Positions 4,400-29,087 are shown, numbered from the stretch's first letter. The stretch: 32,000 nt of DNA from Dickeya dadantii NCPPB 898 (GCF_000406145.1 NZ_CM001976.1:375776-407775); one strand, 5' to 3'. Made by a program: numbers and translations. Notes: generated by a model not told the origin, from the sequence alone.

Positions 4400-4407
4400 T
4401 ATCACAC

Positions 4408-5568: not shown

Positions 5569-5596
5569 TGTGCCTTTAATGGCATGAAAAGGAACC

Positions 5597-8379: not shown

Positions 8380-8460
8380 AGTCTTCCTCTTTTATCAATC
8401 AGGTGTGCGGCCACCCGTCACCGGTAGCATAAGCCTTGCCGGTGACGGCCGCGTTAACCG

Positions 8461-10098
<1,638 letters not shown>

Positions 10099-10127
10099 TC
10101 AGATGGCTTTTTTTGTTTTGCTAAATT

Positions 10128-10145
10128 GCTAAACCGGTTATGCAG
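10128..10145. promoter_or_regulatory. Putative ScrR (LacI-type) operator upstream of scrY
   Basis: TGCTAAACCGGTTATGCA is 14/18 self-complementary around a CCGG centre. It shares the half-site GCTAAACCG with the site upstream of scrK (11239-11254). Confidence 0.45.
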
Positions 10146-10204
10146 CGAAAGCTAAATGGGGCGAAGAGGGTTGGCAAGGAATTTTGTTTTCTTGCTGTGC
10201 TAAC

Positions 10205-10220
10205 TGTGATCATGACAACA
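10205..10220. promoter_or_regulatory. Possible CRP site upstream of scrY
   Basis: TGTGA-TCATGA-CAACA matches 8/10 positions of TGTGA-N6-TCACA. It lies ~130 nt upstream of the scrY start. Confidence 0.3.
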
Positions 10221-10255
10221 AAACCCGCTCCCGACGGTGCATGCGGCTGTCGGGA
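10218..10255 (-). terminator. Probable terminator after scrK
   Basis: On the minus strand, a TCCCGAC...GTCGGGA hairpin (10229-10255) is followed by GCGGGTTTTGTTGTC. Confidence 0.45.
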
Positions 10256-10270
10256 ACCGGTTCTGAAAGG

Positions 10271-11194
10271 CTATGACGCGGTGGTGAGTTGATGGGCGAA
10301 CGGTAGCGCCGTCATCGCGCCTTTGGCGGTGGTCGCCAGTGCGCCGCAGCGTTGCGCCTGCGTGAGCACGCTATGCCAGTCGTCAATCTGGTACAGGCTA
10401 TCGTAGCCGGCCAGCGCGGCGAGCATGCCGGCGACAAAGGCATCGCCGGCGCCGGTGGTGTCGACCGGGGTGACGCGGTGCGCCAGGAAGTGCCGCAACT
10501 GGTGGCCGTCATGCAGCCAGACGCCGTCGCCGCCCTGAGTAATCAGCAACCGTTTGATGGGGTAGCGGGCCATCAGGTTAGCACTGCCCTGACGAATGTC
10601 CTCGCTGCCGCTGAGAAACAGGAATTCCTCTTCCGACAGCTTCACCACGTCCGCCAGCGCCAGCACCTGATCCAGACTGGTTCTCAATTCCTGCTCGCTG
10701 CGCCACAGGTCGGCGCGGATATTCGGGTCAAAACTGACCCATCCTTGTGCGGCGCGAATCCGTTGTATCGCTTCCAGCGCCGTGCTGCGCGACGGTTCGC
10801 GAGACAGCGCGATAGAGCACAGGTGCAGCCATTCGCTGCGCTGAAACGCCGGCAGGTCGGACGGTTGCAGGAACAGGTCGGCGCTGGGGCGCACCATGAA
10901 CGTGAAGGTGCGTTCACCCTGGGCATCAAGACTCACCACCACGGTGGAAGTACGGTGTTCCGCATCCGGTTGCATGTGGCGGATATCTACCTGCTCGCGG
11001 GCCAGCACGTCGCGCAGGAAATGGCCGAACGCGTCCTCGCCGACGCGGCCGATAAAGCCGCTGTGTCCGCCCAATCGGGCGACGCCCACGGCGACGTTGG
11101 CGGGCGCGCCCCCCGGACATTTCAGATAGCGCTCCTCGCCTTCCGGAATGAGGTCGACTACCGCATCGCCCATTACCCATACTTTGTGAGACAT
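10271..11194 (-). CDS. scrK: Fructokinase (PfkB/ribokinase family)
   Basis: 307-aa ORF with VWVMGDAVVDLIPE...PGGAPANVAVGVARLGG at the N-terminus and DTTGAGDAFVAGMLA near the C-terminus. First gene of the scr regulon. Confidence 0.9.
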   Translation of the reverse strand: MSHKVWVMGDAVVDLIPEGEERYLKCPGGAPANVAVGVARLGGHSGFIGRVGEDAFGHFLRDVLAREQVDIRHMQPDAEHRTSTVVVSLDAQGERTFTFMVRPSADLFLQPSDLPAFQRSEWLHLCSIALSREPSRSTALEAIQRIRAAQGWVSFDPNIRADLWRSEQELRTSLDQVLALADVVKLSEEEFLFLSGSEDIRQGSANLMARYPIKRLLITQGGDGVWLHDGHQLRHFLAHRVTPVDTTGAGDAFVAGMLAALAGYDSLYQIDDWHSVLTQAQRCGALATTAKGAMTALPFAHQLTTAS

Positions 11195-11238
11195 AATTAC
11201 ACTCTTTATCGGGATAGTTAAACTGTTCGCTAAAATAG

Positions 11239-11254
11239 AAGAAACGGTTTAGCT
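11239..11254. promoter_or_regulatory. Putative ScrR operator upstream of scrK
   Basis: AAGAAACGGTTTAGCT contains the reverse complement of the GCTAAACCG half-site also seen upstream of scrY. It lies ~45-60 nt upstream of the scrK ATG. Confidence 0.4.
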
Positions 11255-11977
11255 AATCAACTTGTTGATGGCAAGAGGGGCATGAAAAGCTTATCAGCAG
11301 TGCGGTTCATGGCCGCTGTGTGGCGGTGTAACCCGGTGAGGTCGCTAATGACAGATCGTTGAATTTATGGCAATAAAAAATCAGGCGAGGATGTCATAAA
11401 AAATAATTATCTCGTGGGAATGCGACATATTTCCAAATCATTATTATACTAATCATATTATATTTATTCCCGAATATTATTTACCGGCTAACAAATATCG
11501 CCGATGAGATAACTCGCTTTTTTATTTATAAAAATTATCTTGTCACAAAATATTATTTTTCCATACTTTATAGTGAATCACTCATCAGTCGGTGAGGTAA
11601 CGCAATGCCTGATGCAGTCCATTCGGATCTGCTGTCTGTTGCTTATTTTCGCTATTGGGGCAAGGCGCGCTCGTATTCTGAAAATGATTCCCTTTATTTT
11701 TATTAGGTTAGTGATGCCCGCTGTTTCTGGTCGCTTCATCGGGACAGTGAGAAAAACGAACGTGCGTTGACGGACAGCCTTGTGTCGGATTCCACAGTAA
11801 TAACGCAACAATAATGAGGTTTATTCGGCTACGCGTCGGGTCGAAATGAAAAATATTCCCGCATTGGCGGGGTTTGTTCACCGGGAAATATCGGAGCCTC
11901 TGGCGTGAACTCTGGCGCGCCGGGGCGGAAAACAATAACAGGAACCATGACGACCTCAGGGATGAGGCCCGACTTGA

Positions 11978-13498
<1,521 letters not shown>

Positions 13499-13859: not shown

Positions 13860-14336
<477 letters not shown>

Positions 14337-14445
14337 CCGATGCCGGTTTTTCGGGGGGAGGTTTCCCGTGTGCCGGTTTTCCTTATAGCGGTATCCGCGT
14401 GGTGCGATACCTGCGCCACGCGGTTTGTCGGCGTCCGTCGCCGGA

Positions 14446-14910
14446 TCAGCGCAGATGATGAATCACCTGATTGCGGCTGCCGCGCCACATCAGCGTCAAA
14501 TCTCGCTGTTCCTGCACGAACCGGCCATCCACCAGCACGTTGATCAGATCCACCACCTCACTCTGTTCCGGCGTCAGCTCATCCAGCCGGTAGCCGGTCC
14601 ACATCCAGATATTCTTACCGGGGCATTCGTCGTGCACCCGTTTCACCAGCCGCAGGACCTCGGGCACGTTTTGTGGATGCAGCGGGTCACCGCCCGACAG
14701 CGACAGGCCTTGCAGCGGTACGTCGGTGTTTTGCAGATCGGCGATGATGCGATCTTCCATTTCCTGCGTGAAAGGGTGCCCGGAGTTCACTCGCCAGGTG
14801 CTCTGGTTATAGCAGCCGGGGCACTGGTGCTCACAGCCTGCCACAAACAGCGTACAGCGCGTTCCCGGACCGTTGACCACATCCACCGGGTAGTATTGAT
14901 GGTAGTTCAT
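14446..14910 (-). CDS. nrdG: Anaerobic ribonucleotide reductase activating protein (radical SAM)
   Basis: MNYHQYYPVDVVNGPGTRCTLFVAGCEHQCPGCYN... is near-identical to E. coli NrdG. The ORF-track start at 14925 is 5 codons upstream of the conserved Met. Confidence 0.95.
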   Translation of the reverse strand: MNYHQYYPVDVVNGPGTRCTLFVAGCEHQCPGCYNQSTWRVNSGHPFTQEMEDRIIADLQNTDVPLQGLSLSGGDPLHPQNVPEVLRLVKRVHDECPGKNIWMWTGYRLDELTPEQSEVVDLINVLVDGRFVQEQRDLTLMWRGSRNQVIHHLR

Positions 14911-15007
14911 AGCGTTACCGTCCAAAAGGCCGCCCGTCGGGCGGCATCAGCCTAACGCCGCAGTCGTGCATGAGGCCGCGCGCCCAATGGGAGCGCGGCG
15001 CAGACTG

Positions 15008-17541: not shown

Positions 17542-18450
17542 ATGGCAGACAACGTTCTGATTCTGGACGGAGGAATGGGGCGGGAACTGGCACGCATTGG
17601 CGCTCCCTTTCGTCAGCCGGAGTGGTCGGCGCTGGCGCTGATGGAATCGCCGCAGCATGTGCGTCAGGTACATGACAGCTATATCGCCGCCGGCGCGCAG
17701 GTGATTACCACCAACAGCTACGCCGTGGTGCCTTTCCATATCAGCGACGCGGTGTTTAACGCGCGCGGTCAGGCGCTGGCGACGCTGGCCGGGCAACTGG
17801 CGCGTCAGGCGGCGGATGCGGCCGCCCACCCGGTGCGCGTCGCCGGTTCGCTGCCGCCGGTGCTGGGTTCGTATCGTCCGGATCTGTTCAATGCCGCCGC
17901 CGCGACGCCGATCCTGAAAACGCTGATCGATGCCCTGAATCCGTACGTCGATGTGTGGCTGGCGGAAACCCAAAGTTCGCTGGCGGAAGTGGCGCTGGTG
18001 CGCGAACTGCTGGCGAACGATGCGCGCGAGCTGTGGCTGTCGTTTACGTTGCAGGATGAACTGGACGCCGACGGCCACGCCCGCCTGCGTTCCGGCGAAA
18101 CCGTGGTGGCCGCGGCGCAAGCGGCTATCCAACTGCGCGCCGCTAATTTGCTGTTTAACTGTAGCCGGCCGGAAGTGATGGCGCCGGCGGTGGCGCAGGC
18201 CAGCGCGACGCTGAAAGCGCAGTCCGCCGCCATTGGCGTGGGCGTGTATGCCAACGCCTTCGAGCCGGAAGATAACCAGCGCGGCGCTAACGAAGGGCTG
18301 AGCCGTTTACGCACCGATACGCACCCGGAGGGTTACCTGCAATGGTCGCAGGAATGGGTGGCGCAGGGAGCGTCGTTGGTCGGCGGCTGCTGCGGCATCG
18401 GCCCGGAGCACATCGCCCGTCTGGCGCAGGCATTCAACCGCCAGGGATAA
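17542..18450 (+). CDS. Homocysteine S-methyltransferase family protein (MmuM/YbgG-like)
   Basis: 302-aa ORF with LILDGGMGREL at the N-terminus, ITTNSYA, and the C-terminal Zn-ligand motif GGCCGIGPEHI. Confidence 0.88.
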   Translation: MADNVLILDGGMGRELARIGAPFRQPEWSALALMESPQHVRQVHDSYIAAGAQVITTNSYAVVPFHISDAVFNARGQALATLAGQLARQAADAAAHPVRVAGSLPPVLGSYRPDLFNAAAATPILKTLIDALNPYVDVWLAETQSSLAEVALVRELLANDARELWLSFTLQDELDADGHARLRSGETVVAAAQAAIQLRAANLLFNCSRPEVMAPAVAQASATLKAQSAAIGVGVYANAFEPEDNQRGANEGLSRLRTDTHPEGYLQWSQEWVAQGASLVGGCCGIGPEHIARLAQAFNRQG

Positions 18451-18523
18451 GCACCGGCGGTCATCTCCATAACGATAATAATCATCCGTCATGATGGATG
18501 AACACTCACGAAGGGAACACAAC

Positions 18524-20065
18524 ATGAATCGTCGTCATTTTATCAAGAGCGCCTGCGCCCTGTCCGTCGCGGCGGCCGCTACCGGCTGGCCGTTGAGCGC
18601 CGCCTGGGGAGCAGACGCCGCTGAACAACCGAAAAAGGGCGGTCACCTGATTGTCGGGGTGGATAACGCCTCCAGCACCGACCGTCTCGACCCGGCGTTC
18701 TGGTTCGAAACCTATATGTACTTCGTGGGTTCCCAACTGTTCAATAACCTGCTGGAGCTGGACGAAAAAGGCGAACTGGCGCCGTCGCTGGCCGAATCCT
18801 GGGACAGCAAGGACGGCGGCCGCACCTGGGTGCTGCATATCCGCAAAGGCGTACAGTTCCATGATGGCCGTACGCTCGGCGCCAAAGACGTGATCTACTC
18901 GCTCAACCATCACCGCGGCGAGAAATCCAGCTCGTCGGTGAAAGGCTATCTGGACCCGGTGATCGCGATGGACGCCACCGGCAGCCATGAAGTGACCATC
19001 CGCCTGAGCGAACCGAACGTGGAGTTCGTCGCACTGCTGAGCGACGTGCACTTTGCCATTACCCCGGAAAACGAGAGCTTCGACAAAGGTATCGGCACCG
19101 GTGCCTTTATTCTGGAGAGCTTCCAGCCGGGCGTGCGCACATTGGTGAAACGCAACCCGAATCACTGGAACAGCGAGCGCGGCCATGTCGACTCGGTCGA
19201 AACGCTGGCGATGAACGACTCAACTGCCCGCGTGGCGGCGCTGGTGAGCGGCTCGGCGCACATCATCAACCGTGTTAACCCGCGCATCGTCGGCCGCATT
19301 CAGAACATGCCGACCCTGCAACTGCTGCGCTCGCGCGACAGCCAGATTTTCACTTTCCCCGGTCTTGGCAACGTGGCGCCGTTCAACAGCGAGGACGGCC
19401 GGCTGGCGCTGAAATACGCCATCGATCGCCAGCAGATTATCGACACCGTGCTGGGCGGCTATGCCAGCGTGGCTAACGACAACCCGATTTTCCCCTCCAA
19501 CCGCTACTTCGCCAAAGACATTCCCCAGCGTCCGTACGACCCGGAAAAAGCCAAATGGCACTGGCAGAAAGCCGGTTTCAGCGGCCCGCTGACGCTGTCG
19601 GTCGCCGATGCCGGTTTCCCCGGCGCGGTGGACGCCGGCCAGTTGTATCAGGCGTCTGCGCAGAAGGCCGGAATTCCGCTGAACGTAGAGCGCGTGCCGG
19701 ACGACGCGTTCTGGGACAATGTGTGGATGAAAAAACCGTTCGTCTCCTCCAACTGGTCGGTGCGCCCGACCGCCGATGCGCTGCTGTCGCTGGTGTTCAC
19801 CAGTCAGGCGCCGTGGAACGAGTCCGCCTGGAAAGACGCCGGGTTCGACCAACTGGTGCAGGCGGCGCGTGGTGAAGTGAACGAAGACAAGCGCCGTCAG
19901 ATCTACCACGACATTCAGGTGATGCTGGTGGACAAGGGCAGCGAGATCATCCCGCTGTACGCTGACGCGCTCGATGCTTGCAGCAACAAGGTGAAAGGGT
20001 TGAGCGCCATTCCGGGCTTCCCGCTGAGCGGCAACCGCGCGGCGGAAAAAGTGTGGCTGGCCTGA
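18524..20065 (+). CDS. ABC transporter substrate-binding protein, family 5 (Opp/Dpp/Nik type), Tat signal peptide
   Basis: Start at ATG 18524 with an AAGGGA RBS. The N-terminus MNRRHFIKSACALSVAAAATG...AWGA fits the twin-arginine motif. The remainder is typical SBP_bac_5. Confidence 0.9.
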   Translation: MNRRHFIKSACALSVAAAATGWPLSAAWGADAAEQPKKGGHLIVGVDNASSTDRLDPAFWFETYMYFVGSQLFNNLLELDEKGELAPSLAESWDSKDGGRTWVLHIRKGVQFHDGRTLGAKDVIYSLNHHRGEKSSSSVKGYLDPVIAMDATGSHEVTIRLSEPNVEFVALLSDVHFAITPENESFDKGIGTGAFILESFQPGVRTLVKRNPNHWNSERGHVDSVETLAMNDSTARVAALVSGSAHIINRVNPRIVGRIQNMPTLQLLRSRDSQIFTFPGLGNVAPFNSEDGRLALKYAIDRQQIIDTVLGGYASVANDNPIFPSNRYFAKDIPQRPYDPEKAKWHWQKAGFSGPLTLSVADAGFPGAVDAGQLYQASAQKAGIPLNVERVPDDAFWDNVWMKKPFVSSNWSVRPTADALLSLVFTSQAPWNESAWKDAGFDQLVQAARGEVNEDKRRQIYHDIQVMLVDKGSEIIPLYADALDACSNKVKGLSAIPGFPLSGNRAAEKVWLA

Positions 20066-20075
20066 GGCGGGTAAC

Positions 20076-21116
20076 GTGACGATTTTTCACCGATGGGCTG
20101 CGCTTCACCGATGGGCAAGTCTTTACCGATGGGCAAGTCTTTACCGATGGACTGGCCGCTACCCGCTGCTGATGCTGATTCTGCGGCGTTTGCTGGCGGG
20201 TGTGGCGATGATCGCGGTGGTATCGGTGCTGATTTTCGCCGGTATCCAGTTGCTGCCGGGCAACGCCGCCACCGCCATTCTGGGGCAGACGGCGACGCCG
20301 GAAGCGGTGCGGGCGTTGAACGCCCAACTGGGGCTGGACCAGCCGGCGGTTTCCCGCTATCTCAGTTGGCTATGGGGCGTGCTGGGCGGCGATTTCGGCC
20401 AGAGCTTCACCAGCCGTCAGAGCATCGCGCCGGTGCTGGCGTACCGGCTGGAAAACACGCTGTTTCTGGCCGGCTGCACGGCGGTGATCGCGGTGCCGCT
20501 GGCGCTGCTGACCGGCTTTCTGTCGGTGCGTTATCAGGGCAGCTGGCTGGACCGGCTGCTTAACCTGTTTGCCCGCGCCGCGGTGGCGTTGCCGGAGTTT
20601 TTCTCCGGTTACCTGTTGATTCTGATTTTTTCCATCACCCTGTTCTGGCTGCCGAGCAACAGCAGCGTCAGCGACGGTATGCCGCTTGGCGCGCACCTGA
20701 CCGCCATCGCGTTGCCGTGCCTGACGCTGGTGCTGGCGGTGCTGGGGCACATGAGCAACATGACCCGCGCGGCGCTGATCGGCGCTCAAAACGCGGCCTA
20801 TGTCGACACGGCGTTGCTAAAAGGGATTTCGCCTTCCGCTATCCTGCTGCGTCACGTGCTGCCCAACGCCTGGGGGCCGATCATCAACGTTATCGTGCTC
20901 AACCTGGCGTACCTGATGGTGGGGGTGGTGATCGTCGAAAGCGTGTTTGTCTACCCGGGGCTGGGGCAGTACATGGTCGACAGCATCAGCAAACGCGATA
21001 TGCCGGTGATTCAGGGCTGCGCGCTGGTGCTGGCGACGATTTACATCCTGCTTAATCTGCTGGCGGATGTGGTGTCGCTGATGGCGAATCCGCGTCTGCG
21101 TCATGCCCGGCGGTAA
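20076..21116 (+). CDS. ABC transporter permease (DppB/OppB type)
   Basis: BPD_transp_1 permease. Two candidate starts: GTG 20076 (GAGG RBS 8 nt upstream, includes the repeat-encoded extension) or ATG 20172 (MLILRRLLAGV..., the canonical family N-terminus, but with no clear SD). Confidence 0.85.
   Translation: MTIFHRWAALHRWASLYRWASLYRWTGRYPLLMLILRRLLAGVAMIAVVSVLIFAGIQLLPGNAATAILGQTATPEAVRALNAQLGLDQPAVSRYLSWLWGVLGGDFGQSFTSRQSIAPVLAYRLENTLFLAGCTAVIAVPLALLTGFLSVRYQGSWLDRLLNLFARAAVALPEFFSGYLLILIFSITLFWLPSNSSVSDGMPLGAHLTAIALPCLTLVLAVLGHMSNMTRAALIGAQNAAYVDTALLKGISPSAILLRHVLPNAWGPIINVIVLNLAYLMVGVVIVESVFVYPGLGQYMVDSISKRDMPVIQGCALVLATIYILLNLLADVVSLMANPRLRHARR
20086..20157. repeat. 18-bp x 4 tandem repeat (TTyACCGATGGGCwrsks) at the SBP/permease junction
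   Basis: Units at 20086-20103, 20104-20121, 20122-20139 and 20140-20157. Units 2 and 3 differ at one base. The repeat is in frame with the downstream permease ORF and encodes HRWAAL-HRWASL-YRWASL-YRWTGR. Confidence 0.9.
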
Positions 21117-21143
21117 TGCCGTCAACCGAATGGATATCTGTAC

Positions 21144-21965
21144 ATGCCTGCTGTGAAACCTTCCGTGGTGTTTGGCCTGTTGGGGCTTAGCCTGTTTATT
21201 GGGGTGGCGCTGTTTGCGCCCTGGATTGCGCCTTACCCGGCCGATAAGGTGGTCGGCGGCGCCTGGTTGGGGCCGATGCCGCAGGTCTGGCTCGGCACCG
21301 ACAATATCGGGCGCGACCTGTTTTCCCGTTTGATCTGGGGCACCCGCACCTCGCTGGCGGTGACCGCGCTGGCGGCGGCGCTGGCGTTTGTTATGGGCAC
21401 CGGGCTGGGGTTTCTGTCCGGGGTATGCGGCGGCTGGGTCGACCAACTGATTTCCCGCGTTAACGACGTGCTGATGGCGATCCCGACGCTGATTCTGGCG
21501 CTGGTGGTGCTGGCGATGCTGCCGAAAAGCACCTTGATCATCATTCTGGTGCTGGGTGTGCTGGAAGCCACCCGCGTGCTGCGTGTTTCGCGCGCGCTGG
21601 CGGTGGATATCGCCACGCAGGAGTTCATCGAGGTGGCGCGCATGCGCGGCGAGTCGATGGGCTGGATCCTGTGGCGCGAGATCCTGCCGAATGCGCGCAA
21701 CACGCTGGTGGCGGAGTTCGCGCTGCGTTTCATTTTCATCCTGCTGTTCCTGTCGGCATTGTCGTTTCTGGGGCTGGGTATACAGCCGCCGACTGCCGAC
21801 TGGGGCGGTCTGGCGCGCGACAACAAAGACGGCATTCTGTTTGGCGTGTGGGCGGCGCTGGTGCCGGGGGCGGCGATCGCCCTGCTGGCGGTGTCGCTCA
21901 ATGTGGTGGCCGACTGGCTGCTGAGTCGCGACGGACGTAACTGGCGCGGAGGCCGTCATGAGTGA
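21144..21965 (+). CDS. ABC transporter permease (DppC/OppC type)
   Basis: 273-aa polytopic ORF with the family motifs LGTDNIGRDLFSRLIWG and EFIEVARMRGES. Overlaps the next gene by 8 nt. Confidence 0.9.
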   Translation: MPAVKPSVVFGLLGLSLFIGVALFAPWIAPYPADKVVGGAWLGPMPQVWLGTDNIGRDLFSRLIWGTRTSLAVTALAAALAFVMGTGLGFLSGVCGGWVDQLISRVNDVLMAIPTLILALVVLAMLPKSTLIIILVLGVLEATRVLRVSRALAVDIATQEFIEVARMRGESMGWILWREILPNARNTLVAEFALRFIFILLFLSALSFLGLGIQPPTADWGGLARDNKDGILFGVWAALVPGAAIALLAVSLNVVADWLLSRDGRNWRGGRHE

Positions 21966-23553
21966 GTTGCTGCGGGTCGAACAGTTGCGCGTAGTGGCGG
22001 GCGAGCACCCGCTGGTACAAGACATCAGCTTTACCCTCAATAAAGGCGAAGTGCTGGGGTTGATTGGCGAGTCCGGCGCGGGCAAGTCCACCATCGGCCA
22101 GGCGATTCTCGGCCACTGTCGTCACGGCATGCGTATCGAAAGCGGGCACATCTGGTTTCAGAACGGCGATAAACACAGCGATCTGGCCACGTTATCGGAG
22201 CGGCAGTTACGGCGGGTGCGCGGCGCGCGCATCGCGTATGTGGCGCAGTCCGCCAGCGCGTCGTTCAACCCGGCGCAGCGCATCGGCGAACAGGTGATTG
22301 AAACCGCGGTGCGCCACGGCGTGCTGTCGCGCCAGCAGGCCATCGCGCGGGCGATCGAACTGTTTGCGCAGCTGTCGCTGCCGGAACCGCAGGTCTTTTT
22401 CCAGCGCTATCCGCATCAGGTATCCGGCGGACAGTTGCAGCGGGCGATGATCGCGATGGCGATGTGCGCCGGCCCCGATCTGATCATTTTCGACGAACCG
22501 ACCACCGCGCTGGACGTGACTACCCAGCTCGGGGTGCTCAATGCCATCGATGAGATTATCCGCCTGACCGGCGTGGCGGCGCTGTATATCAGTCACGATC
22601 TGGCGGTGGTGGCGCAAATCAGTCACCGCATCATGGTGCTGCGTCACGGCCGTCAGGTGGAAATCGGCGACACGGCGTCGCTGCTGGCAAACCCTGGCGA
22701 AGCGTACACCCGCGCGTTGCTGCAGGCGCGCGGCGAACCCAAAGCGTCGCAACCGACGACCGACGACATCCTTCTGGATATCCGCCATCTCGGCGCGCGT
22801 TATCAGCAACAACCGGTATTGCAGGACGTGTCGCTGCAACTGGCGCGCGGACGCACGCTGGCGGTGATCGGCGAATCCGGCTCCGGCAAATCGACGCTCG
22901 GACGTACCCTGTGCGGGCTGCTGGCGCCGGCGGGCGGCGAGATTCGGTTAAATGGCGATGCGTTGCCGCCGCGACTGGCGCAACGTAACCGCGCCCAGTT
23001 GCAATCGATCCAGATGATTCACCAGCATCCGGACACCGCGCTCAACCCGCGCCTGCCGATCGGCGTGCAGATTGAACGGGCGATGGTGTGCCTGACCCAA
23101 CTGGACGCCGCCGCGCGCCGCGTACGCGTGAGCGACTTGCTGCATCAGGTCGGACTGCTGCCGGAAATGGCGCAGCGTTATCCCACCGCGCTGTCCGGCG
23201 GTCAAAAACAGCGGGTATGCATCGCCCGCGCGCTGGCGGCGCAGCCGTCGCTGATAGTCTGCGACGAACCGACATCGGCGCTGGACCCGCTGGTGGCGCG
23301 CGAGGTGCTCGCGCTGCTGCGTCAGATCCAGCAGGAAACCGGCGTCGCCTACCTGTTCATCACCCACGATTTACACGTGGTACGGGAAGTGGCCGACACC
23401 GTGGCGGTGCTGCGCCACGGTCGCATTGTCCGGCAGGGACCGGTGACCGAAACGCTGTCGCCGCCGCTGGACGACTACACGCAGCAACTGCTGCTGGCGG
23501 TGCCGGAAATGCGCTGCGGTTGGCTGCGGGACGTGATGGAGAAGGTGTGCTGA
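21958..23553 (+). CDS. ABC transporter ATP-binding protein, fused tandem ATPase (DppD/DppF-like halves)
   Basis: 531-aa ORF with two Walker A motifs (GESGAGKST, GESGSGKST), two signature motifs (VSGGQLQR, LSGGQKQR) and two Walker B motifs (IIFDEPT, IVCDEPT). Confidence 0.92.
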   Translation: MSELLRVEQLRVVAGEHPLVQDISFTLNKGEVLGLIGESGAGKSTIGQAILGHCRHGMRIESGHIWFQNGDKHSDLATLSERQLRRVRGARIAYVAQSASASFNPAQRIGEQVIETAVRHGVLSRQQAIARAIELFAQLSLPEPQVFFQRYPHQVSGGQLQRAMIAMAMCAGPDLIIFDEPTTALDVTTQLGVLNAIDEIIRLTGVAALYISHDLAVVAQISHRIMVLRHGRQVEIGDTASLLANPGEAYTRALLQARGEPKASQPTTDDILLDIRHLGARYQQQPVLQDVSLQLARGRTLAVIGESGSGKSTLGRTLCGLLAPAGGEIRLNGDALPPRLAQRNRAQLQSIQMIHQHPDTALNPRLPIGVQIERAMVCLTQLDAAARRVRVSDLLHQVGLLPEMAQRYPTALSGGQKQRVCIARALAAQPSLIVCDEPTSALDPLVAREVLALLRQIQQETGVAYLFITHDLHVVREVADTVAVLRHGRIVRQGPVTETLSPPLDDYTQQLLLAVPEMRCGWLRDVMEKVC

Positions 23554-23623
23554 CTGGCGTATGTTGCTAATCTTGTGTGATATTCGTGGCGGAAGCGAGC
23601 CATCAGGCTATTGGAGAAAAAAA

Positions 23624-23950
23624 GTGAAGGGATGGGTTTTATTGCTGGCGGGGTTGATGTCCGGTTCGGCATTTGCGGAAGTTAATTGCGAGAAACTTGA
23701 TAATAAGGCGTTTGATGAGGGTAAGGTTATCGACGTCGCTCAATCTGCTTATCAGGTTGGCGGTAAAGGCCGCCTCTATTTTTATTCTGCACCTGATGAT
23801 ACTTGCTTAAATAAACAACTGTTTATTGTTGTGGGCGATAAGGTCACTGTCTATCGGGAATGGAACGGGTTCTACGCGATAACCTACTACAATCCTGCGG
23901 GCGAACTGTTTGATGGTTGGGTAAAAGGCGACCGTTTGTCGGCAAACTGA
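23624..23950 (+). CDS. Small secreted protein of unknown function (signal peptide, two Cys)
   Basis: GTG 23624 with a GGAG RBS 7 nt upstream gives (M)KGWVLLLAGLMSGSAFA|EVNCEKL..., 108 aa. Visibly lower GC than its flanks. No family recognised. The ORF-track start at 23561 lacks a signal-peptide context. Confidence 0.55.
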   Translation: MKGWVLLLAGLMSGSAFAEVNCEKLDNKAFDEGKVIDVAQSAYQVGGKGRLYFYSAPDDTCLNKQLFIVVGDKVTVYREWNGFYAITYYNPAGELFDGWVKGDRLSAN

Positions 23951-23987: not shown

Positions 23988-24017
23988 CACCGGGCTTGCC
24001 GCTGGCGTAGCCCGGTG
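23988..24017. terminator. Hairpin between convergent genes (possible bidirectional terminator)
   Basis: Perfect 9-bp stem CACCGGGCT / AGCCCGGTG with a 12-nt loop. No clear U-tract on either strand. Confidence 0.3.
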
Positions 24018-24100: not shown

Positions 24101-24835
24101 TTACCCCTGTGCCGGAAACGGCGGCAGTTGTCGAAAGGTGTTCAATAGCCCTTCCGACCAGGCTTTGCGAATGGCGACGAAGTAAGGGTCGTTTTCGGTG
24201 ATGCGGTGCTGTTCGCCGGCATCAAAGCTACCGGTGCGATAAATCATTACGTCCAGCGGCAGGCCGACCGACAGGTTGCTGCGCAGCGTGGAGTCGATGG
24301 AAATCAGCGCGCAGCACATTGCCTGTTCCAGCGAGGTGTCCGCCGTCAGTACCCGGTCGATAATCGGTTTGCCGTACTTGCTTTCGCCGATCTGAAAGTA
24401 GGGGGTATCGACGGTGGCTTCGATAAAGTTGCCTTCCGGGTAGATGTGGAACAGCCGCGGCGTTTCGTCGCCAATTTGCCCGCCCAACAGCAGGTTACAG
24501 CCGAAATTGGTGCTGCTGCCGTTTTGCTGGGCCTGACTGTCGCGGTGGATGACCTCGCGCACCGTTTCGCCCACCAGCGTGGCGGCGTCGTACAACGTGT
24601 CGACCTGCATCAGGTTCGGCGTGTGCTGAGCTTGTATGCGGGCGTTCAGCAGGCTGATGATGCTCTGGGTGGTGGCGAGATTGCCGGCGGACTGGAGCAC
24701 CAGCACCCGTTCGCCTTCCTGACGGAACACATGGAGCTTTCTGAAGGTTGCGATGTGGTCGACCCCCGCGTTGGTGCGGGAGTCGGAAGCGAAAACCAGC
24801 CCGTCAGACAGACGCATGGCCACACAGTAGGTCAT
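24101..24835 (-). CDS. Anbu (ancestral beta-subunit) proteasome homologue, Ntn-hydrolase T1 family
   Basis: 244-aa ORF starting MTYCVAMRLSDGLVFASDSRTNAG (Thr2 as the presumptive N-terminal nucleophile). It is the last gene of the ATP-grasp/alpha-E/transglutaminase/Anbu cassette. Confidence 0.85.
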   Translation of the reverse strand: MTYCVAMRLSDGLVFASDSRTNAGVDHIATFRKLHVFRQEGERVLVLQSAGNLATTQSIISLLNARIQAQHTPNLMQVDTLYDAATLVGETVREVIHRDSQAQQNGSSTNFGCNLLLGGQIGDETPRLFHIYPEGNFIEATVDTPYFQIGESKYGKPIIDRVLTADTSLEQAMCCALISIDSTLRSNLSVGLPLDVMIYRTGSFDAGEQHRITENDPYFVAIRKAWSEGLLNTFRQLPPFPAQG

Positions 24836-24864
24836 ACAACACCTTTTGAGTTAAACAGTGCCCA

Positions 24865-25686
24865 CTATTGCTGTTGTTGCACCTGCTGCTGTCGCTCAAA
24901 CAGGCTCACTTCAGCCTCGGAAAACATCTCTTCACAACCACCGCCAAGACGGCTGCCGCGCACCGGGCAGGCGTCCAGATAATCCATCCCTACCGCCAGC
25001 CGTAAGTGCTGATTGAGCAGACGGGTGTTGTTGGTGATGTCAAAGCTGTACCAGCGCTCATTCAGCCAGGCCTCGGCCCAGGCGTGCATCGCCACGTGCT
25101 CGGTATCCCGGCTGTAAACGTAGCCGCTGACGTAGCGCGCCGGAATGCGCAGGCTGCGACAGCAGGCCAGGAACACGTGGGTGTGATCCTGACACACCCC
25201 CTTGCCTTTGGCAAAAGCCGCCGATGCGGTGTCGTGCACCCGGGTGGCGCCGGGAGTATACGGCATTTTCAGCCGCAGTTCCGCCATCAGCGTTTCCAGG
25301 CTGCCCACCGGGTCAGTTTCACGGTAATAGCGCCGGGCGAACTCGCGGATTGGCTCGTCCGCCTCGGTCAGCTCGGTGCCGCGCAGGAACACCAGCGGCG
25401 ACAGCGACTCGTCGCTCTCCTCGGGCAGCTCTTCTACATTATCGGCGATTTCCACCACACCCTGAGCGTGGATCAGAATGTCGTGATGAGGGTGGTCCAG
25501 CGTCAGCACGTGCATCAGGTTGCCGTAGGCGTCGGTGGTGGCGACCGCCGAGGCCGGCAGCGTCAGCTTCCAGTCACTGATGCGCTGGCGGGCGGAATTC
25601 TGCGGCGTAAGCCGTAGGTACTGGGTGCTGAACTTCACTTCTTCATCGTAACGGTAGTGGGTCAGGTGATTGATGGTGAGTTTCAT
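24865..25686 (-). CDS. Transglutaminase-like cysteine protease with Bact_transglu_N domain
   Basis: 273-aa ORF with N-terminal MKLTINHLTHYRYDEEV and a Cys-His-Asp core (GKGVCQDHTHVF, MHAWAEAW, SFDITN). ATGA overlap with the upstream gene. Confidence 0.88.
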   Translation of the reverse strand: MKLTINHLTHYRYDEEVKFSTQYLRLTPQNSARQRISDWKLTLPASAVATTDAYGNLMHVLTLDHPHHDILIHAQGVVEIADNVEELPEESDESLSPLVFLRGTELTEADEPIREFARRYYRETDPVGSLETLMAELRLKMPYTPGATRVHDTASAAFAKGKGVCQDHTHVFLACCRSLRIPARYVSGYVYSRDTEHVAMHAWAEAWLNERWYSFDITNNTRLLNQHLRLAVGMDYLDACPVRGSRLGGGCEEMFSEAEVSLFERQQQVQQQQ

Positions 25687-26612
25687 AGCGCCTCCAGGTA
25701 GGTGTGGCGGATGCTGTCAGCCAGTTCGTTGATTTTAGTAAGGAAACGGTTGAGATAATTTTGCAGGTCGTCGGCCAGGACATCGTCGAGCGAGCCGAAG
25801 CGCAGTTCCACGTGCAGCAGATGGGCCAGCCGCTGCGGAATGCGCGCCCGTTCACTGCCGATCATCTCCAGTTGTTGCACCAGATCGCCCACGCAGGCGT
25901 GCAGCGAGCGCGGCACGTCGTTGCGCAGTACCAGCAGTTCGGTGACGGTTTCCCGGCTGATGGGCTGGCGATAAATGCTGTGGTAGGCCTCGCGGGCGCT
26001 CACCGCACGCAGCAGGGTATCGAGCCGGTAGTATTCACGCACCGGGTCTGGGTCGTTGTTGAGCTGTTGATCCTTGATCGTCAGCAGTTGCGCGGTAGCA
26101 AACGCCCGTTCGATCAGGGTGCCGATGCGGATAAAACACTGGGCGTCGTTGCGCAGCAACGTGCCGAACATGGCGCCGCGAAACAGGTGCGCGCGCTCTT
26201 TTACCCAGTCGAAGAACGCATCGATACCGATCTTGTCCACCCCGGACTGACGCAGGTTACGGATATCGATACGGGTGGTGTTGATGCATTCCCACACTTC
26301 GGACGACAGGCTGCCGCGTACCGCGTGGGCGTTGTTCCAGGCCATTTCGATACAACTGTAGATGCTGCTGGGGTTGTGGCTGTCCAGCGCAAAGAAGTTC
26401 AGCAGGTTGTTCATGGTGAAGCGGGCGTAGCGCTCCTGGAACAGCTCATGGGTGAACGTCAGATTGAGCGGCAGCGACAGATCGTGCTGCTGCTGGCTGT
26501 GGCGTGGCATCATCGACAGCTTGTAGGTGACGTCCAGCACGCGGGCAAAACTTTCCGCCCGTTCCAGATAACGGGCCATCCAGTACAGTTCGCTGGCGGT
26601 ACGGCTTAGCAT
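25683..26612 (-). CDS. Alpha-E domain protein (DUF403)
   Basis: 309-aa all-helical ORF starting MLSRTASELYWMARYLERAESFARVLDV, the characteristic alpha-E N-terminus. 7-nt overlap with the upstream ATP-grasp gene. Confidence 0.85.
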   Translation of the reverse strand: MLSRTASELYWMARYLERAESFARVLDVTYKLSMMPRHSQQQHDLSLPLNLTFTHELFQERYARFTMNNLLNFFALDSHNPSSIYSCIEMAWNNAHAVRGSLSSEVWECINTTRIDIRNLRQSGVDKIGIDAFFDWVKERAHLFRGAMFGTLLRNDAQCFIRIGTLIERAFATAQLLTIKDQQLNNDPDPVREYYRLDTLLRAVSAREAYHSIYRQPISRETVTELLVLRNDVPRSLHACVGDLVQQLEMIGSERARIPQRLAHLLHVELRFGSLDDVLADDLQNYLNRFLTKINELADSIRHTYLEAL

Positions 26613-28045
26613 GATTGGTCCTCCTCCATCACCCAGGTATCTTTGGTGCCGCCTCCTTGTGAGGAATTCACCACCAGCGAGCCTTCGGTCAGCGCTACGC
26701 GGGTCAGCCCGCCGGGCACCAGCCGGATCTCCTCGCCGTACAGCACGAACGGGCGCAGGTCGATGTGGCGCGGCGCCAGCCCTTCCTCGACGAATGTCGG
26801 GCAGGTGGAGAGCGCCAGCGTGTCCTGAGCGATGTAGTTGCCGGGGTTGGCCAGCAGCCGCTGGCGGAACTCATCGATTTGCTGGCGGGTGGATTTGGGG
26901 CCGACCAACATGCCGTAGCCGCCCGCGCCGTGCACCTCTTTCACCACCATGCTGTCCAGATGGGCCAGCACGTAGCCGAGATCGTCGGGTTTGCGGCACT
27001 GCCAGGTGGGGATGTTGCCGAGAATCGGCTCTTCGGACAGGTAAAAGCGGATCATCTCCGGCACGTAGGGGTAGATGGATTTGTCGTCCGCCACGCCGGT
27101 GCCGATGGCGTTCGCCAGCACCACGCCACCGGCGCGGTACACCGACAGCAGCCCCGGCACGCCGAGCATCGAATCGGCGCGGAATGCCAGCGGGTCGAGG
27201 AAGGCGTCGTCAAGACGGCGGTAGATCACGTCCACCCGGCACGGACCTTCGGTGGTGCGCATATACACCGCGCCCTCTTTTACAAACAAGTCGGCGCTTT
27301 CCACCAGTTCCACCCCCATTTGCTGGGCGAGGAAACTGTGTTCGAAATAGGCGCTGTTAAAGCGACCCGGCGTCATTACCACCACCGTCGGATCGTCGAC
27401 GTGGGTGCTTTCCCGCAGCGTCTGTAGCAGGTAGCTGGGGTAACGCTCCACCGGCGCGATGTGCTGGCTGGCGAACAGGTCCGGATAGAGCCGCATCATC
27501 ATCTTGCGGTTTTCCAGCATGTAGGACACGCCGGACGGCGTGCGCAAGTTGTCTTCCAGCACGTAATAGTGGCCGTCGCTGTTGCGCACCATATCGATGC
27601 CGGTGATGTGGGCGTAGATATTGTTGTGCAGGTCGACGCCCTGCATGCATGGCTGATACTGCTCGTTGGCGAGCACCTGTTCGCGCGGCACGATGCCGGC
27701 GTTGAGAATGTGTTGCTGATGGTAGATGTCGTAGAGAAAGGCGTTGAGGGCTTTGACCCGCTGGCGGATGCCGAGGTCGAGCATCCGCCATTCATGGGCC
27801 GGAATGATGCGCGGCACGCTGTCAAAAGGAATCAGGCGCTCGGTGCCGCCTTCTTCGCCATACACGTTAAAGGTAATCCCCACCCGGTGGAACAGCAGTT
27901 CCGCCTGTTCTTTCTTCTGGCGGATAGCGTGCTGGTCGGTTTGTTGCAACCATTGCCAGTAGGCGTCGTAGTGCTGGCGTTGCCCGCCTTCTGCGCTGAG
28001 CATCTCATCGTAGTAAGGCGCGGTCGGAAGCGTCATTTTTATCAT
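26606..28045 (-). CDS. Circularly permuted ATP-grasp type 2 protein (DUF404/DUF407)
   Basis: Family-typical N-terminus ...YYDEMLSAEGGQRQHYDAY... and body. Preferred start is ATG 28045 (AGGGGA RBS 5-6 nt upstream). The 67 extra N-terminal codons in the ORF track (to 28246) are low-complexity and cover the predicted promoter. Confidence 0.85.
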   Translation of the reverse strand: MIKMTLPTAPYYDEMLSAEGGQRQHYDAYWQWLQQTDQHAIRQKKEQAELLFHRVGITFNVYGEEGGTERLIPFDSVPRIIPAHEWRMLDLGIRQRVKALNAFLYDIYHQQHILNAGIVPREQVLANEQYQPCMQGVDLHNNIYAHITGIDMVRNSDGHYYVLEDNLRTPSGVSYMLENRKMMMRLYPDLFASQHIAPVERYPSYLLQTLRESTHVDDPTVVVMTPGRFNSAYFEHSFLAQQMGVELVESADLFVKEGAVYMRTTEGPCRVDVIYRRLDDAFLDPLAFRADSMLGVPGLLSVYRAGGVVLANAIGTGVADDKSIYPYVPEMIRFYLSEEPILGNIPTWQCRKPDDLGYVLAHLDSMVVKEVHGAGGYGMLVGPKSTRQQIDEFRQRLLANPGNYIAQDTLALSTCPTFVEEGLAPRHIDLRPFVLYGEEIRLVPGGLTRVALTEGSLVVNSSQGGGTKDTWVMEEDQSC

Positions 28046-28088
28046 TGTCGTCCCCTGCATTCCGCTTGATGGAAGATACAACGAAAAA

Positions 28089-28104
28089 TGCAGAAAGCAT
28101 GCCA
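28089..28104 (-). promoter_or_regulatory. Sigma54 (RpoN) -24/-12 promoter for the ATP-grasp/Anbu operon
   Basis: The minus strand reads TGGCAT-GCTTT-CTGCA versus the consensus TGGCAC-N5-TTGCA. The GG and GC doublets have the canonical spacing. It lies ~45 nt upstream of ATG 28045. Confidence 0.6.
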
Positions 28105-28146
28105 GCGTGGCAAATGAGGTGCTTATTGCTGACGGCGGAGAAAAAC

Positions 28147-28163
28147 TGCACTTCGCTGGTGCA
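28147..28163. promoter_or_regulatory. NtrC (GlnG)-type enhancer site
   Basis: TGCACTTCGCTGGTGCA is 17 bp long. Its arms match the NtrC consensus TGCACC-N4-TGGTGCA (compare glnAp2 TGCACCAACATGGTGCT, recalled). It lies ~40 bp upstream of the -24 element. Confidence 0.5.
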
Positions 28164-28354
28164 AATAACGACAAACGGTGCGCTACGGCGGGGTGATGCG
28201 GCGAAAATAACGATAGGGGATGGTGCGATAGCGGAGGAGTGTGCACGGGTTTGAGTCAACACTATCAAGTAATAGTGGAATAAAATAACGCGACAAAATG
28301 TTGCGTATCGCGATTTAATGTCTTAGCATGCTTGTAAGTCATAGCATGATGTCT

Positions 28355-28440
28355 GAGACCACAGAGACCACAGAGACCACAGAGACCACAGAGACCACAG
28401 AGACCACAGAGACCACAGAGACCACAGAGACCACAGAGAC
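28355..28440. repeat. Perfect 9-bp tandem repeat (GAGACCACA) x 9.6
   Basis: Counted directly: nine identical units plus GAGAC. It ends 23 nt before the antitoxin ATG. It lies in the divergent region between the Anbu operon and the TA pair. Confidence 0.97.
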
Positions 28441-28463
28441 GATTACATATAGGTATCAATAAT

Positions 28464-28700
28464 ATGGCTATCAGTATTCGATTGGATGAAGACTTTGTCA
28501 CCGAAGTAAAGGTGTATGCAGAAGCATCCAGCCGTAGTGTGCCCAAGCAGATAGAGCACTGGGCCAAAATCGGCAGGATTGCTGAGGATAATCCCGATCT
28601 GACATACGAATTTATTATGGAAACTTTGCTCGCCCGAAGCGAAGTAGAGAATGGTAAGGTTTCTCGTTATGTCCGAAGAACAAAACCAAGCAGAGATTGA
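28464..28700 (+). CDS. ParD-like antitoxin (type II TA)
   Basis: 78-aa ORF starting MAISIRLDEDFVTEVKVYAEASSRSVPKQIEHWAKIGR. Small size and a 32-nt overlap with a RelE/ParE-type gene downstream. Confidence 0.75.
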   Translation: MAISIRLDEDFVTEVKVYAEASSRSVPKQIEHWAKIGRIAEDNPDLTYEFIMETLLARSEVENGKVSRYVRRTKPSRD

Positions 28701-28998
28701 GGTTTATCAGACCAACCGGTTTGAAAAAGCACTGGACAAATTACCGCAACAGTTCAGAGCTGTAGTTGAAGATGAAATTGATGCGATTGTTGAAAACCCG
28801 GAGCTGGGTGAGCTAAAGAAAGGCGACTTGAGTTATTTAAGAGTTCATAAGTTCAAGCTGAACAACCAGTTAATGTTGCTGGGGTACAGCTGGAACCAAG
28901 ACCAGCTTATCATCCATCTGCTGAGTTTAGGTTCTCATGAAAACTTTTATCAGCAACAGAAAAAGATGAGAAAGTCAGATTTAAAACTCATCAGATAA
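28669..28998 (+). CDS. RelE/ParE-family toxin (type II TA)
   Basis: 109 aa from ATG 28669 (MSEEQNQAEIEVYQTNRFEKALDKLP...GDLSYLRVHKFKLNNQLMLLGYSW...IIHLLSLGSHENFY). Typical RelE/ParE size and C-terminal G-HEN-Y motif. Confidence 0.78.
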   Translation: MSEEQNQAEIEVYQTNRFEKALDKLPQQFRAVVEDEIDAIVENPELGELKKGDLSYLRVHKFKLNNQLMLLGYSWNQDQLIIHLLSLGSHENFYQQQKKMRKSDLKLIR

Positions 28999-29087
28999 AC
29001 GAAACCCCGGTATTAACCGGGGGTCGTCATTTAACCATAACGACATTCGCAATCCGTCGTTATTGCAACGCAGCCGGGTAACGGACC

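Follow-up and report, generated by a model that had tools for sequence, protein, structure and literature searches.

Within the window, by which we mean the whole 32-kb stretch of Dickeya dadantii DNA analysed, an ORF listing places four minus-strand genes at 24101-28045. The first codes for a circularly permuted ATP-grasp (cpATP-grasp) protein of 479 aa, a predicted ATP-dependent carboxylate-amine ligase (26606-28045), and is followed by genes for a 309-aa, all-helical Alpha-E protein with a conserved ER motif (25683-26612), a 273-aa transglutaminase-like protein of the cysteine peptidase/amidase fold (24865-25686), and Anbu, a 244-aa homologue of the proteasome beta-subunit (24101-24835). 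The end of the ATP-grasp gene overlaps the start of the Alpha-E gene by 7 nt (26606-26612), the Alpha-E and transglutaminase-like genes overlap by 4 nt (25683-25686), and a 29-nt gap (24836-24864) precedes the Anbu gene, which has its own ribosome-binding site (AAAGG). These coordinates match exactly the preliminary description of four intact genes coupled in this manner; no reading frame, start or catalytic residue has been lost.

A mechanical reading of the cpATP-grasp ORF extends it to a GTG at 28246 (26606-28246), 201 nt upstream of the ATG at 28045. This ATG is preceded by a Shine-Dalgarno sequence (AGGGGA) and shared by 77 of 79 relatives; it is the true start, and the 201-nt stretch beyond it is a non-coding promoter region. 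At the other end of the gene set, a GC-rich hairpin on the minus strand (23988-24017; RNA fold -21.7 kcal/mol) sits between the convergent genes for Anbu and a small protein and could be a transcription terminator, a reading that is tentative because no U-run was found after the hairpin on either strand.

Protein families and predicted active sites

The cpATP-grasp and Alpha-E families, which we take to be those given the older names DUF404/DUF407 and DUF403, are both matched over the full length of their Pfam models. The cpATP-grasp protein aligns with PF14403 (CP_ATPgrasp_2) across positions 1-374 of 374 (E 8.8e-164; 545 bits against a gathering score of 32) and with PDB entry 3N6X in a PDB sequence search (E 1.2e-211), while the Alpha-E protein covers positions 1-294 of 294 in PF04168 (E 2.7e-83; 280 bits against a cut-off of 20.8). 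Across 74 Alpha-E homologues (28-93% identity), residues W11, R14, E17, R18, R99, N111, G164, E168 and L201 are invariant, E17-R18 being the N-terminal ER motif. An AlphaFold2 model of this protein has 16 helices (pLDDT 95.1, pTM 0.92) and found no significant match amongst PDB folds (best E 0.4), so that structure offers no hint of its role.

The transglutaminase-like protein combines a Bact_transglu_N domain (PF08379, E 6.3e-22) with a Transglut_core domain (PF01841, E 5.3e-22) and matches PDB entry 3ISR (E 3.5e-13), with whose residues the putative catalytic triad C165 (GVCQD), H201 (MHAWAE) and D216 (SFDIT) aligns. Anbu matches the Pfam Proteasome family (E 2e-11) and, far more closely, the known Anbu structures: 5NYW from Yersinia bercovieri (E 1.5e-112), 5LOY (4e-91), 5LOX (1.3e-88) and 5NYJ/5NYF (~1e-75), with archaeal proteasome alpha subunits much weaker at ~2e-4. 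Its N-terminus, MTYCVAM, has Thr directly after the start Met and no propeptide, and in alignments T2 falls on residue 1 of the mature chains. On alignment, T2, D18, K33 and G51 are all present as the probable counterparts of the Thr, Asp17, Lys32/33 and oxyanion Gly to which catalytic roles have been assigned in Anbu (PMC5666114, PMC6376114). Furthermore, the alignment to 5NYW and 5LOY reaches residues 239-241 of 244 and includes a conserved PYF..IRK.WSEGL, suggesting that the helix at this end of the protein is retained.

The predicted S1 pocket of Anbu is T21/F31/S49/L53/T56 (T20, F30, S48, L52 and T55 in mature numbering), which differs from the Anbu-1 pocket of P. aeruginosa Anbu, T20-F30-T48-L52-S55 (PMC5666114), by two conservative Thr/Ser swaps; T55 is also found in the Anbu-1 consensus protein 5LOY. 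The contrasting, basic Anbu-2 pocket is I20-A29-R46-R50-T53. By the S1 pocket, as read from alignment, the window's Anbu is of the Anbu-1 subtype. Pfam and PDB searches thus place all four ORFs, by margins far beyond chance, in the CP_ATPgrasp_2, Alpha-E, transglutaminase and Anbu families, as the preliminary description had proposed, and structure-sequence alignments bear out its statements that Anbu Thr2 and the Cys/His/Asp triad are present and that Anbu structures exist.

Promoter region

On the operon's strand, 44 nt upstream of the ATP-grasp ATG, lies a sigma-54 (RpoN) -24/-12 element, TGGCATGCTTTCTGCA (28089-28104, minus strand), with GG-N10-GC spacing. It matches the sigma-54 consensus TGGCAC-N5-TTGCA at 9 of 11 positions, with two mismatches, and no other site in the window matches TGGCAY-N5-YTGCW. 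A -24/-12 match of at least 9/11 was found no more than 120 nt upstream in 69 of 79 relatives, as compared with 159 of 16200 control windows (1%). In an alignment of the intergenic regions, where mean column identity is 42%, the TGGC..TTT.TGC columns form an invariant block.

A further 42 nt upstream is an NtrC-type, enhancer-like palindrome, TGCACCAGCGAAGTGCA (28147-28163, no strand assigned); the inferred transcription start is ~77 nt downstream of its centre, and both elements fall inside the 120 nt that precede the first gene. With one mismatch to TGCACC-N5-GGTGCA it is the best NtrC-like palindrome in the window and the sole site with one mismatch or fewer (0.15 expected in 32 kb). Within the equivalent zone, NtrC-like sites with up to two mismatches occur in 40 of 79 related loci and in 0.9% of control windows, and sites with up to one mismatch in 14 of 79 and in 0.05%, respectively, an enrichment of ~50-fold or more. 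The window has a single strong palindrome; a second upstream half-site, conserved in relatives, is degenerate here.

We infer that NtrC binds at TGCACCAGCGAAGTGCA and that the four genes are probably transcribed as a single unit from the sigma-54 promoter. This architecture fits the published induction by nitrogen limitation in Pseudomonas and Burkholderia. The Anbu operon of P. putida is amongst the genes most induced under nitrogen limitation (PMC3235984, note added in proof; PMC8050072, Table 2; PMC7801951), and a related cpATP-grasp/Alpha-E/transglutaminase cluster in B. cenocepacia is NtrC- and sigma-54-dependent (PMC5491218). Taking the conserved cis elements together with the transcriptomics of other genera, the promoter is most likely activated by NtrC under nitrogen limitation.

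Conservation and comparison with known systems

For comparison we fetched 80 related loci from Enterobacterales and Aeromonadaceae, with upstream and start counts taken over 79. In all 80 the four genes lie in identical order on one strand, as PMC6376114 also describes. Overlaps of 7 nt and 4 nt recur in most of the 79-80 loci, implying that the first three genes are translationally coupled, and the spacer before Anbu ranges from 11 to 86 nt. The nearest relatives, in Brenneria, Pectobacterium, Kosakonia and Phytobacter, are 84-95% identical per protein. Synteny with pyrBI-ridA was seen in 34 of 80 loci, mostly those of Pectobacteriaceae and Yersiniaceae. Plasmids rarely carry the cassette. 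Directly upstream of the operon in the window, beyond its promoter region, a ParD/ParE toxin-antitoxin pair and a 9-nt repeat array have been inserted, and a low-GC insert is also found directly upstream; all 80 relatives lack the pair.

The closest described system is the Anbu operon of Yersinia bercovieri (YbAnbu, 5NYW; Piasecka et al. 2018, PMC6376114), also of the Enterobacterales, which matches the window's operon in its four genes and in their order. YbAnbu aligns with the window's Anbu end to end, and Yersinia orthologues are ~75% identical. The Yersinia operon has the same sigma-54-like element upstream, and the Yersinia loci (L037-L039) share the pyrBI-ridA neighbourhood; it differs in species and in that the ParDE and 9-nt repeat insertion belongs to the window. 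The sequences of Pseudomonas (P. aeruginosa PA1733, 5LOX; P. putida PP_2685-PP_2688) are more distant, but are of the Anbu-1 subtype with a shared S1-pocket pattern, and their induction under nitrogen limitation by NtrB/NtrC matches the window's promoter architecture; the expression data are those of Pseudomonas, whereas the window's regulation is predicted from sequence. In B. cenocepacia, the sigma-54- and NtrC-dependent cluster BCAM1233-1236, annotated as DUF404/DUF407, DUF403 and transglutaminase-like, differs in containing a second, large transglutaminase-domain protein, and the tables of PMC5491218 give no proteasome-type gene for it.

Three further systems were compared. In the Pup-proteasome system of actinobacteria, which is linked to survival of nitrogen starvation in mycobacteria, an ATP-dependent amide ligase is likewise linked to a Thr1 hydrolase of the proteasome family. 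Membership of this system was rejected: amongst the neighbouring ORFs scanned, we found no Pup, no glutamine-synthetase-fold PafA/Dop, no AAA+ unfoldase such as Mpa and no alpha plus beta 20S subunits, the sole proteasome-family gene being Anbu, which forms an open split ring and not a closed barrel (PMC8665760). HslV is likewise a bacterial homologue of the proteasome beta-subunit with the same Thr1/Asp17/Lys33 chemistry, but it is heat-shock regulated, forms closed hexameric rings and pairs with the AAA+ unfoldase HslU, whereas Anbu lacks both an unfoldase partner and heat induction (PMC6376114). Finally, Zhang and Aravind (PMC3495828) drew an explicit analogy with tubulin tyrosine ligase-like (TTL/TTLL) tagging, where amino-acid tags are attached to protein carboxylates by an ATP-grasp ligase and taken off again by a transglutaminase-like peptidase; this analogy is a prediction only, and the window's ATP-grasp is of the circularly permuted type.

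Possible functions of the operon

The Anbu operon was described in 2008, and experimental work has been done in the close relative Y. bercovieri. No paper in the literature searched, up to 2026, defines its substrate, ligase product or role, in agreement with the preliminary description. Anbu showed no peptidase or amidase activity on any substrate tried, no stable complex of operon proteins was detected, and the ATPase of the ATP-grasp protein was not stimulated by Anbu (PMC5666114, PMC6376114). The Y. bercovieri ATP-grasp orthologue does hydrolyse ATP, releasing phosphate (PMC6376114). In P. aeruginosa Anbu, both epoxomicin and MG132 react with Thr1, and the S1 pocket of Anbu-1 can be superimposed on that of the proteasome (PMC5666114). 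An open lock-washer or helical dodecamer is known for the Anbu homologues of Pseudomonas, Yersinia and Hyphomicrobium.

The explanation that we consider best, with about an even chance of being correct, is that this orthologue of the Anbu operon, under sigma-54/NtrC control, serves the ligation and cleavage of peptides or proteins, its mechanistic part being conjecture. In this scheme the ATP-grasp protein would work in concert with Alpha-E, with which it is translationally coupled. Spending ATP, it would convert a carboxylate into an activated acyl-phosphate and go on to make an amide linkage (peptide or isopeptide) on a substrate that is itself a peptide or protein. Polypeptides tagged or ligated in this way would be cut by the two hydrolases, the transglutaminase-like enzyme with its Cys-His-Asp triad and Anbu, a Thr1 Ntn-hydrolase. 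Overall, peptides or proteins would be turned over in an ATP-gated manner and without an AAA+ unfoldase, recycling amino-acid nitrogen in starvation.

Of the alternatives, the one that survives best, though we think it unlikely, is small-molecule nitrogen scavenging, in which the ATP-grasp protein would join a carboxylate to a small amine or to an amino acid, like glutathione or glutathionylspermidine synthetases, and the transglutaminase-like enzyme and Anbu would be amidases releasing ammonia or amino acids and not proteases. Ntr control suits such a pathway, all peptide substrates tried gave negatives, and many Ntn-hydrolases are non-peptide amidases, a possibility raised by the Anbu authors (PMC6376114). 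The closest solved homologue of the ATP-grasp protein, 3N6X, was deposited as a 'putative glutathionylspermidine synthase', but this is an unverified deposit label, and the mycobacterial cpATP-grasp proteins Rv2411c and Rv2567 failed to make the sole small-molecule conjugate tried. In addition, Anbu assembles from multiple subunits into a large open ring with numerous active sites, has a proteasome-like S1 pocket and reacts with peptide-based proteasome inhibitors (PMC5666114).

Somewhat less probable still is the view preferred by Fuchs et al. (PMC5666114), that Anbu works on its own and without an unfoldase as a bulk protease, acting on damaged or unfolded proteins in starvation, akin to the uncapped 20S proteasome, with the other three genes co-regulated and biochemically separate. 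The spacer and own ribosome-binding site do set Anbu apart from the three overlapping genes, co-purification of operon proteins was not observed (PMC6376114), COG2308 (the ATP-grasp gene) also turns up where a genome lacks Anbu, and Anbu is not a strict requirement for transglutaminases (Valas and Bourne, PMC3235984). Yet the four-gene order, invariant in the 80 loci and, according to the literature, across phyla, is hard to account for without a functional link, and bulk protease activity, on casein included, was not detected (PMC5666114).

We hold it improbable that the operon serves peptide synthesis in the sense of Iyer et al. 2009, with the ATP-grasp and Alpha-E proteins building a non-ribosomal peptide or peptide-derived metabolite that the two hydrolases mature or trim. 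The ligase and hydrolase genes are probably co-transcribed, and it was this role that comparative genomics originally predicted, as PMC5666114 and PMC3495828 summarise. Against this, neither a precursor-peptide gene nor an exporter is conserved beside the operon, making a nitrogen-rich peptide under nitrogen starvation seems counter-productive, and Fuchs et al. judged the idea less likely (PMC5666114). A role in anti-phage defence or as a toxin module, or decay into a non-functional remnant, which the adjacent ParD/ParE pair and low-GC insert might suggest, is effectively refuted by the absence of PADLOC hits for any of the four proteins at E up to 0.01, the intact genes, the shared synteny, the rarity on plasmids and the lack of the toxin-antitoxin pair in relatives.

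Judged on its sequence, the locus is chromosomal and an intact, ordinary orthologue of the four-gene Anbu operon: a real, known system, whose function is no easier to test here than in established model organisms. What the analysis adds is the regulatory result, nitrogen control having already been published for Pseudomonas and Burkholderia, and the earlier suggestion of a nitrogen-starvation phenotype is reinforced by the conserved, predicted sigma-54/NtrC-type promoter.

Gene models, families and relatives

The ORF listing holds four minus-strand frames in the order cpATP-grasp (26606..28246), Alpha-E (25683..26612), transglutaminase-like (24865..25686) and Anbu (24101..24835). Pfam profile searches assigned these to CP_ATPgrasp_2 (8.8e-164, full model), Alpha-E (2.7e-83, full model), Bact_transglu_N together with Transglut_core (about 5e-22 each) and the Proteasome family (2e-11); NCBIfam offered no specific model for cpATP-grasp or Alpha-E and gave Anbu sub-threshold proteasome matches only. 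Sequence searches of the PDB paired cpATP-grasp with 3N6X (1.2e-211), the transglutaminase-like protein with 3ISR (3.5e-13) and Anbu with the Yersinia bercovieri Anbu 5NYW (1.5e-112). Anbu also matched 5LOY (the Anbu-1 consensus protein), 5LOX (P. aeruginosa) and Hyphomicrobium Anbu entries, with true proteasome subunits reaching merely about 1e-4. The catalytic residues are in place both in Anbu (Thr2, which becomes Thr1 once Met is removed, with Asp18, Lys33 and Gly51) and in the transglutaminase-like protein (Cys165, His201 and Asp216), and the Anbu S1 pocket (T20/F30/S48/L52/T55 in mature numbering) follows the Anbu-1 pattern and not the basic Anbu-2 pattern. The four families, the intact Thr2 and the Cys/His/Asp triad named in the preliminary description were thus all recovered, and the identity of the locus as a four-gene Anbu operon is virtually certain.

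When one genome per species was scanned, at least 569 relatives came back, and the best 80 were taken for locus comparison; these come from Enterobacterales, Aeromonas and Tolumonas, with Anbu identities of 65-88%. While the GTG at 28246 is the farthest mechanical extension of the open cpATP-grasp frame, the true start is the ATG at 28045, since this codon is directly preceded by AGGGGA-N6, the resulting N-terminus (MIKMTLPTAPYYDEM) matches most relatives from residue 1 onwards, and an ATG occupies the homologous position in 77/79 related loci. Successive genes are joined by a 7-nt overlap, a 4-nt overlap and a 29-nt gap, matching exactly the junctions first described from the sequence, in which 24101 and 28045 were also the outer limits of the cassette. 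The two overlaps followed by a short spacer recur in most related loci, and the four genes are tightly packed in identical order in all 80 of these best relatives. The C-terminus of the transglutaminase-like protein (24865-24900, minus strand) forms a variable, glutamine-rich tail, ERQQQVQQQQ; relatives align only up to about residue 260-273.

The closest protein matches (88-95% identical) come from Brenneria, Pectobacterium, Kosakonia and Phytobacter, and for Alpha-E the best were an uncultured Enterobacteriaceae bacterium (93%) and Brenneria/Pectobacterium (88-90%). As in the window, the operon adjoins pyrB-pyrI-ridA in 34 of the 80 related loci, and in Brenneria salicis the peptide ABC transporter downstream and mmuM are shared as well. 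Taken with the Alpha-E matches, this points to a Pectobacteriaceae-like enterobacterium as the probable source. Among 5,426 complete E. coli genomes none had a DNA-level match to the operon, and its plasmid occurrences are few, mostly on megaplasmids or mislabelled chromosomes; a mobile-element reading was rejected on these grounds. One related locus, L031, lies on a contig titled 'Pseudomonas lundensis strain I31', yet the similarity of its operon, ridA and pyrBI to the window is like that of the Serratia loci L030 and L033, with which it shares identical gene coordinates; this assembly is probably contaminated or mislabelled.

One homologue search with Alpha-E gave close relatives only (at least 67% identity), and diversity was taken from a representative search. 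Across the resulting 74 homologues (28-93% identity) the ER motif (E17-R18) is invariant, as are W11, R14, R99, N111, G164, E168 and L201. The 74-sequence alignment gave a confident AlphaFold2 model of 16 helices, with a pLDDT of 95.1 and a pTM of 0.92. A sequence search of the PDB with Alpha-E gave nothing meaningful, and Foldseek comparison of the model with 350,542 PDB chains gave no significant hit (best E 0.4, TM at most 0.36). Since Foldseek found no significant neighbour, Alpha-E, which is translationally coupled to the ligase, has no structural analogue, and on the basis of the model the family appears to lack a relative among solved structures. With both searches empty, no functional analogy could be drawn from structure.

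Neighbouring loci

A type II toxin-antitoxin pair lies on the plus strand at 28464-28998, made up of a ParD-like antitoxin (28464-28664; PF11903 at 3e-19) and a ParE-like toxin (28651-28998; PF15781 at 3e-33). The pair occupies an insertion between ridA and the Anbu promoter where GC content is low (0.448 for 28001-29000), and a ParE homologue is absent from all 80 related loci. At 28355-28440 a perfect 9-nt tandem repeat, GAGACCACA, in 9.6 copies with 100% matches, separates the start of parD from the NtrC-like site ahead of the divergently oriented Anbu operon; it may consist of operator repeats, act as a slippage-prone spacer in regulation, or belong to the inserted element.

Convergent with Anbu, a gene at 23561-23950 on the plus strand encodes a small protein (at most 129 aa) whose hydrophobic N-terminal stretch resembles a signal peptide. 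Pfam gave no match for it, and since none of the 80 related loci has a counterpart, it was rejected as a possible substrate or precursor. In a plus-strand cluster at 17542-23553, which stops just short of the Anbu operon, a gene for homocysteine S-methyltransferase precedes those for a peptide-type ABC transporter, namely an SBP_bac_5 binding protein, two permeases and a fused double ATPase. Of the related loci, only that of Brenneria salicis, L003, has this whole arrangement, and no sigma-54 site was found for this cluster.

Further away, a gene for Cse1/CasA, the large subunit of type I-E Cascade, lies at 11990-13498 on the plus strand (PF09481 at 1e-84), beside a segment with a GC content of 0.47 (11001-12000). 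This region may represent a partial or degraded CRISPR-Cas locus, since the ORFs that follow (13884-14336 and 14425-14955) have no Pfam match. A sucrose-type utilisation cluster (LacI-family regulator, GH32 hydrolase, PTS EIIBC, LamB-family porin and PfkB-family kinase) extends over 4528-11194, and a 218-aa pentapeptide-repeat protein at 3749-4405 on the minus strand (PF00805 at 6e-24) could, by size and family, be Qnr/MfpA-like.

The operon promoter and probable nitrogen control

The operon is preceded by a conserved promoter of the sigma-54/NtrC type. The only match to a sigma-54 -24/-12 pattern in the 32-kb window, TGGCATGCTTTCTGCA at 28104..28089, is on the same strand as the operon and sits 44 nt before the cpATP-grasp ATG, and 42 nt further upstream lies TGCACCAGCGAAGTGCA (28147-28163), the only NtrC-type palindrome in the window with at most one mismatch (chance expectation 0.15 per window). 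Among related loci, a sigma-54 match of at least 9/11 was found within 120 nt upstream of the cpATP-grasp start in 69/79, compared with 159/16200 control windows, and the remainder mostly have 8/11 matches. NtrC-like sites with at most two mismatches lie upstream of the sigma-54 element in 40/79 loci (0.9% of controls), and sites with at most one mismatch in 14/79 (0.05% of controls). Since the loci are related, this conservation of the sigma-54 element is best read as that of one ancestral site and not as independent events. The element nevertheless survives in a diverging spacer, which argues for constraint: in a ten-species intergenic alignment mean column identity is 42% and the invariant columns are essentially TGGC..TTT.TGC. 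A sigma-70 scan of the region gave nothing above shuffle expectation.

DUF404/DUF407 and DUF403 are the names under which the cpATP-grasp and Alpha-E families were formerly known. A DUF404/DUF407, DUF403 and transglutaminase-like cluster of B. cenocepacia is sigma-54/NtrC-dependent (PMC5491218), and in nitrogen-limited P. putida the operon ranks with the most strongly induced genes (note in PMC3235984; PMC8050072; PMC7801951). The promoter predicted here agrees with both, and Ntr control of the operon is very probable.

Function of the operon and its significance

The Anbu operon was first defined in 2008 (PMC3235984), and Iyer et al. (2009), as cited in PMC5666114, PMC6376114 and PMC3495828, predicted a peptide-ligase or tagging system. 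Anbu assembles as an open split ring. Tests on many substrates found no peptidase activity, and no mutual complex of the operon proteins was detected (PMC5666114, PMC6376114), while in Pa-Anbu Thr1 is reactive towards epoxomicin and MG132 (PMC5666114). The preliminary description held that substrate, ligase product and physiological role had yet to be established, and literature up to 2026, with subscription journals largely outside coverage, likewise yielded no later definition of function. Several leads were set aside. Rv2411c and Rv2567 belong to the same cpATP-grasp family. As ATP-grasp candidates for GABA-trehalose synthesis both were negative in a 2026 M. tuberculosis preprint. A 2026 preprint on pneumococcal Rrp concerns a different Ntn protease, and a paper on Rv2569c as a 'serine protease' makes no mention of a transglutaminase fold.

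The reading we prefer, to which we give about an even chance, is that peptides or proteins undergo ATP-gated ligation and are then hydrolysed, for nitrogen recycling under Ntr control. Judging from family knowledge, the ATP-grasp enzyme would form an acyl-phosphate and then an amide bond, and the transglutaminase-like enzyme (Cys-His-Asp) and Anbu (Thr1) would hydrolyse amide or peptide bonds; ATP hydrolysis has been reported for the Y. bercovieri ATP-grasp (PMC6376114). The tagging-proteolysis step of this reading is put forward tentatively. That the cassette is an Ntr-controlled, unfoldase-free tagging and degradation pathway for proteins or peptides is unlikely. In such a pathway cpATP-grasp and Alpha-E together would attach an amino-acid tag to protein carboxylates, to be read or erased through proteolysis by the transglutaminase-like enzyme and Anbu; if true, bacteria would have a third degradation-tag system beside ssrA tagging and pupylation, present in genetically easy Enterobacterales.

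Among the alternatives, a pathway for scavenging small-molecule amides is rather unlikely. It is distinctly improbable that Anbu acts as an independent bulk protease with the other genes merely co-regulated. A system for peptide-metabolite synthesis is very unlikely. Defence or decay is essentially excluded, a defence reading having been rejected when the operon proteins matched no PADLOC model.

The locus is real, correctly read and an ordinary orthologue of an already known operon, a close relative of which has been studied experimentally; the window's copy adds no new kind of system, and its function is no more tractable here than in existing model organisms. What the window places on record is a confidently predicted Alpha-E fold without a solved structural relative. 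The Anbu operon is widespread in bacteria and has been proposed to stand near the evolutionary origin of the proteasome. Enterobacterales and Aeromonadaceae keep its sigma-54 promoter with NtrC-type upstream sites, and these predicted sites extend the operon's place in the nitrogen-starvation regulon far outside Pseudomonas and Burkholderia. For substrate hunts, the condition indicated is NtrC activation, in tractable Klebsiella, Serratia, Pectobacterium or Yersinia.
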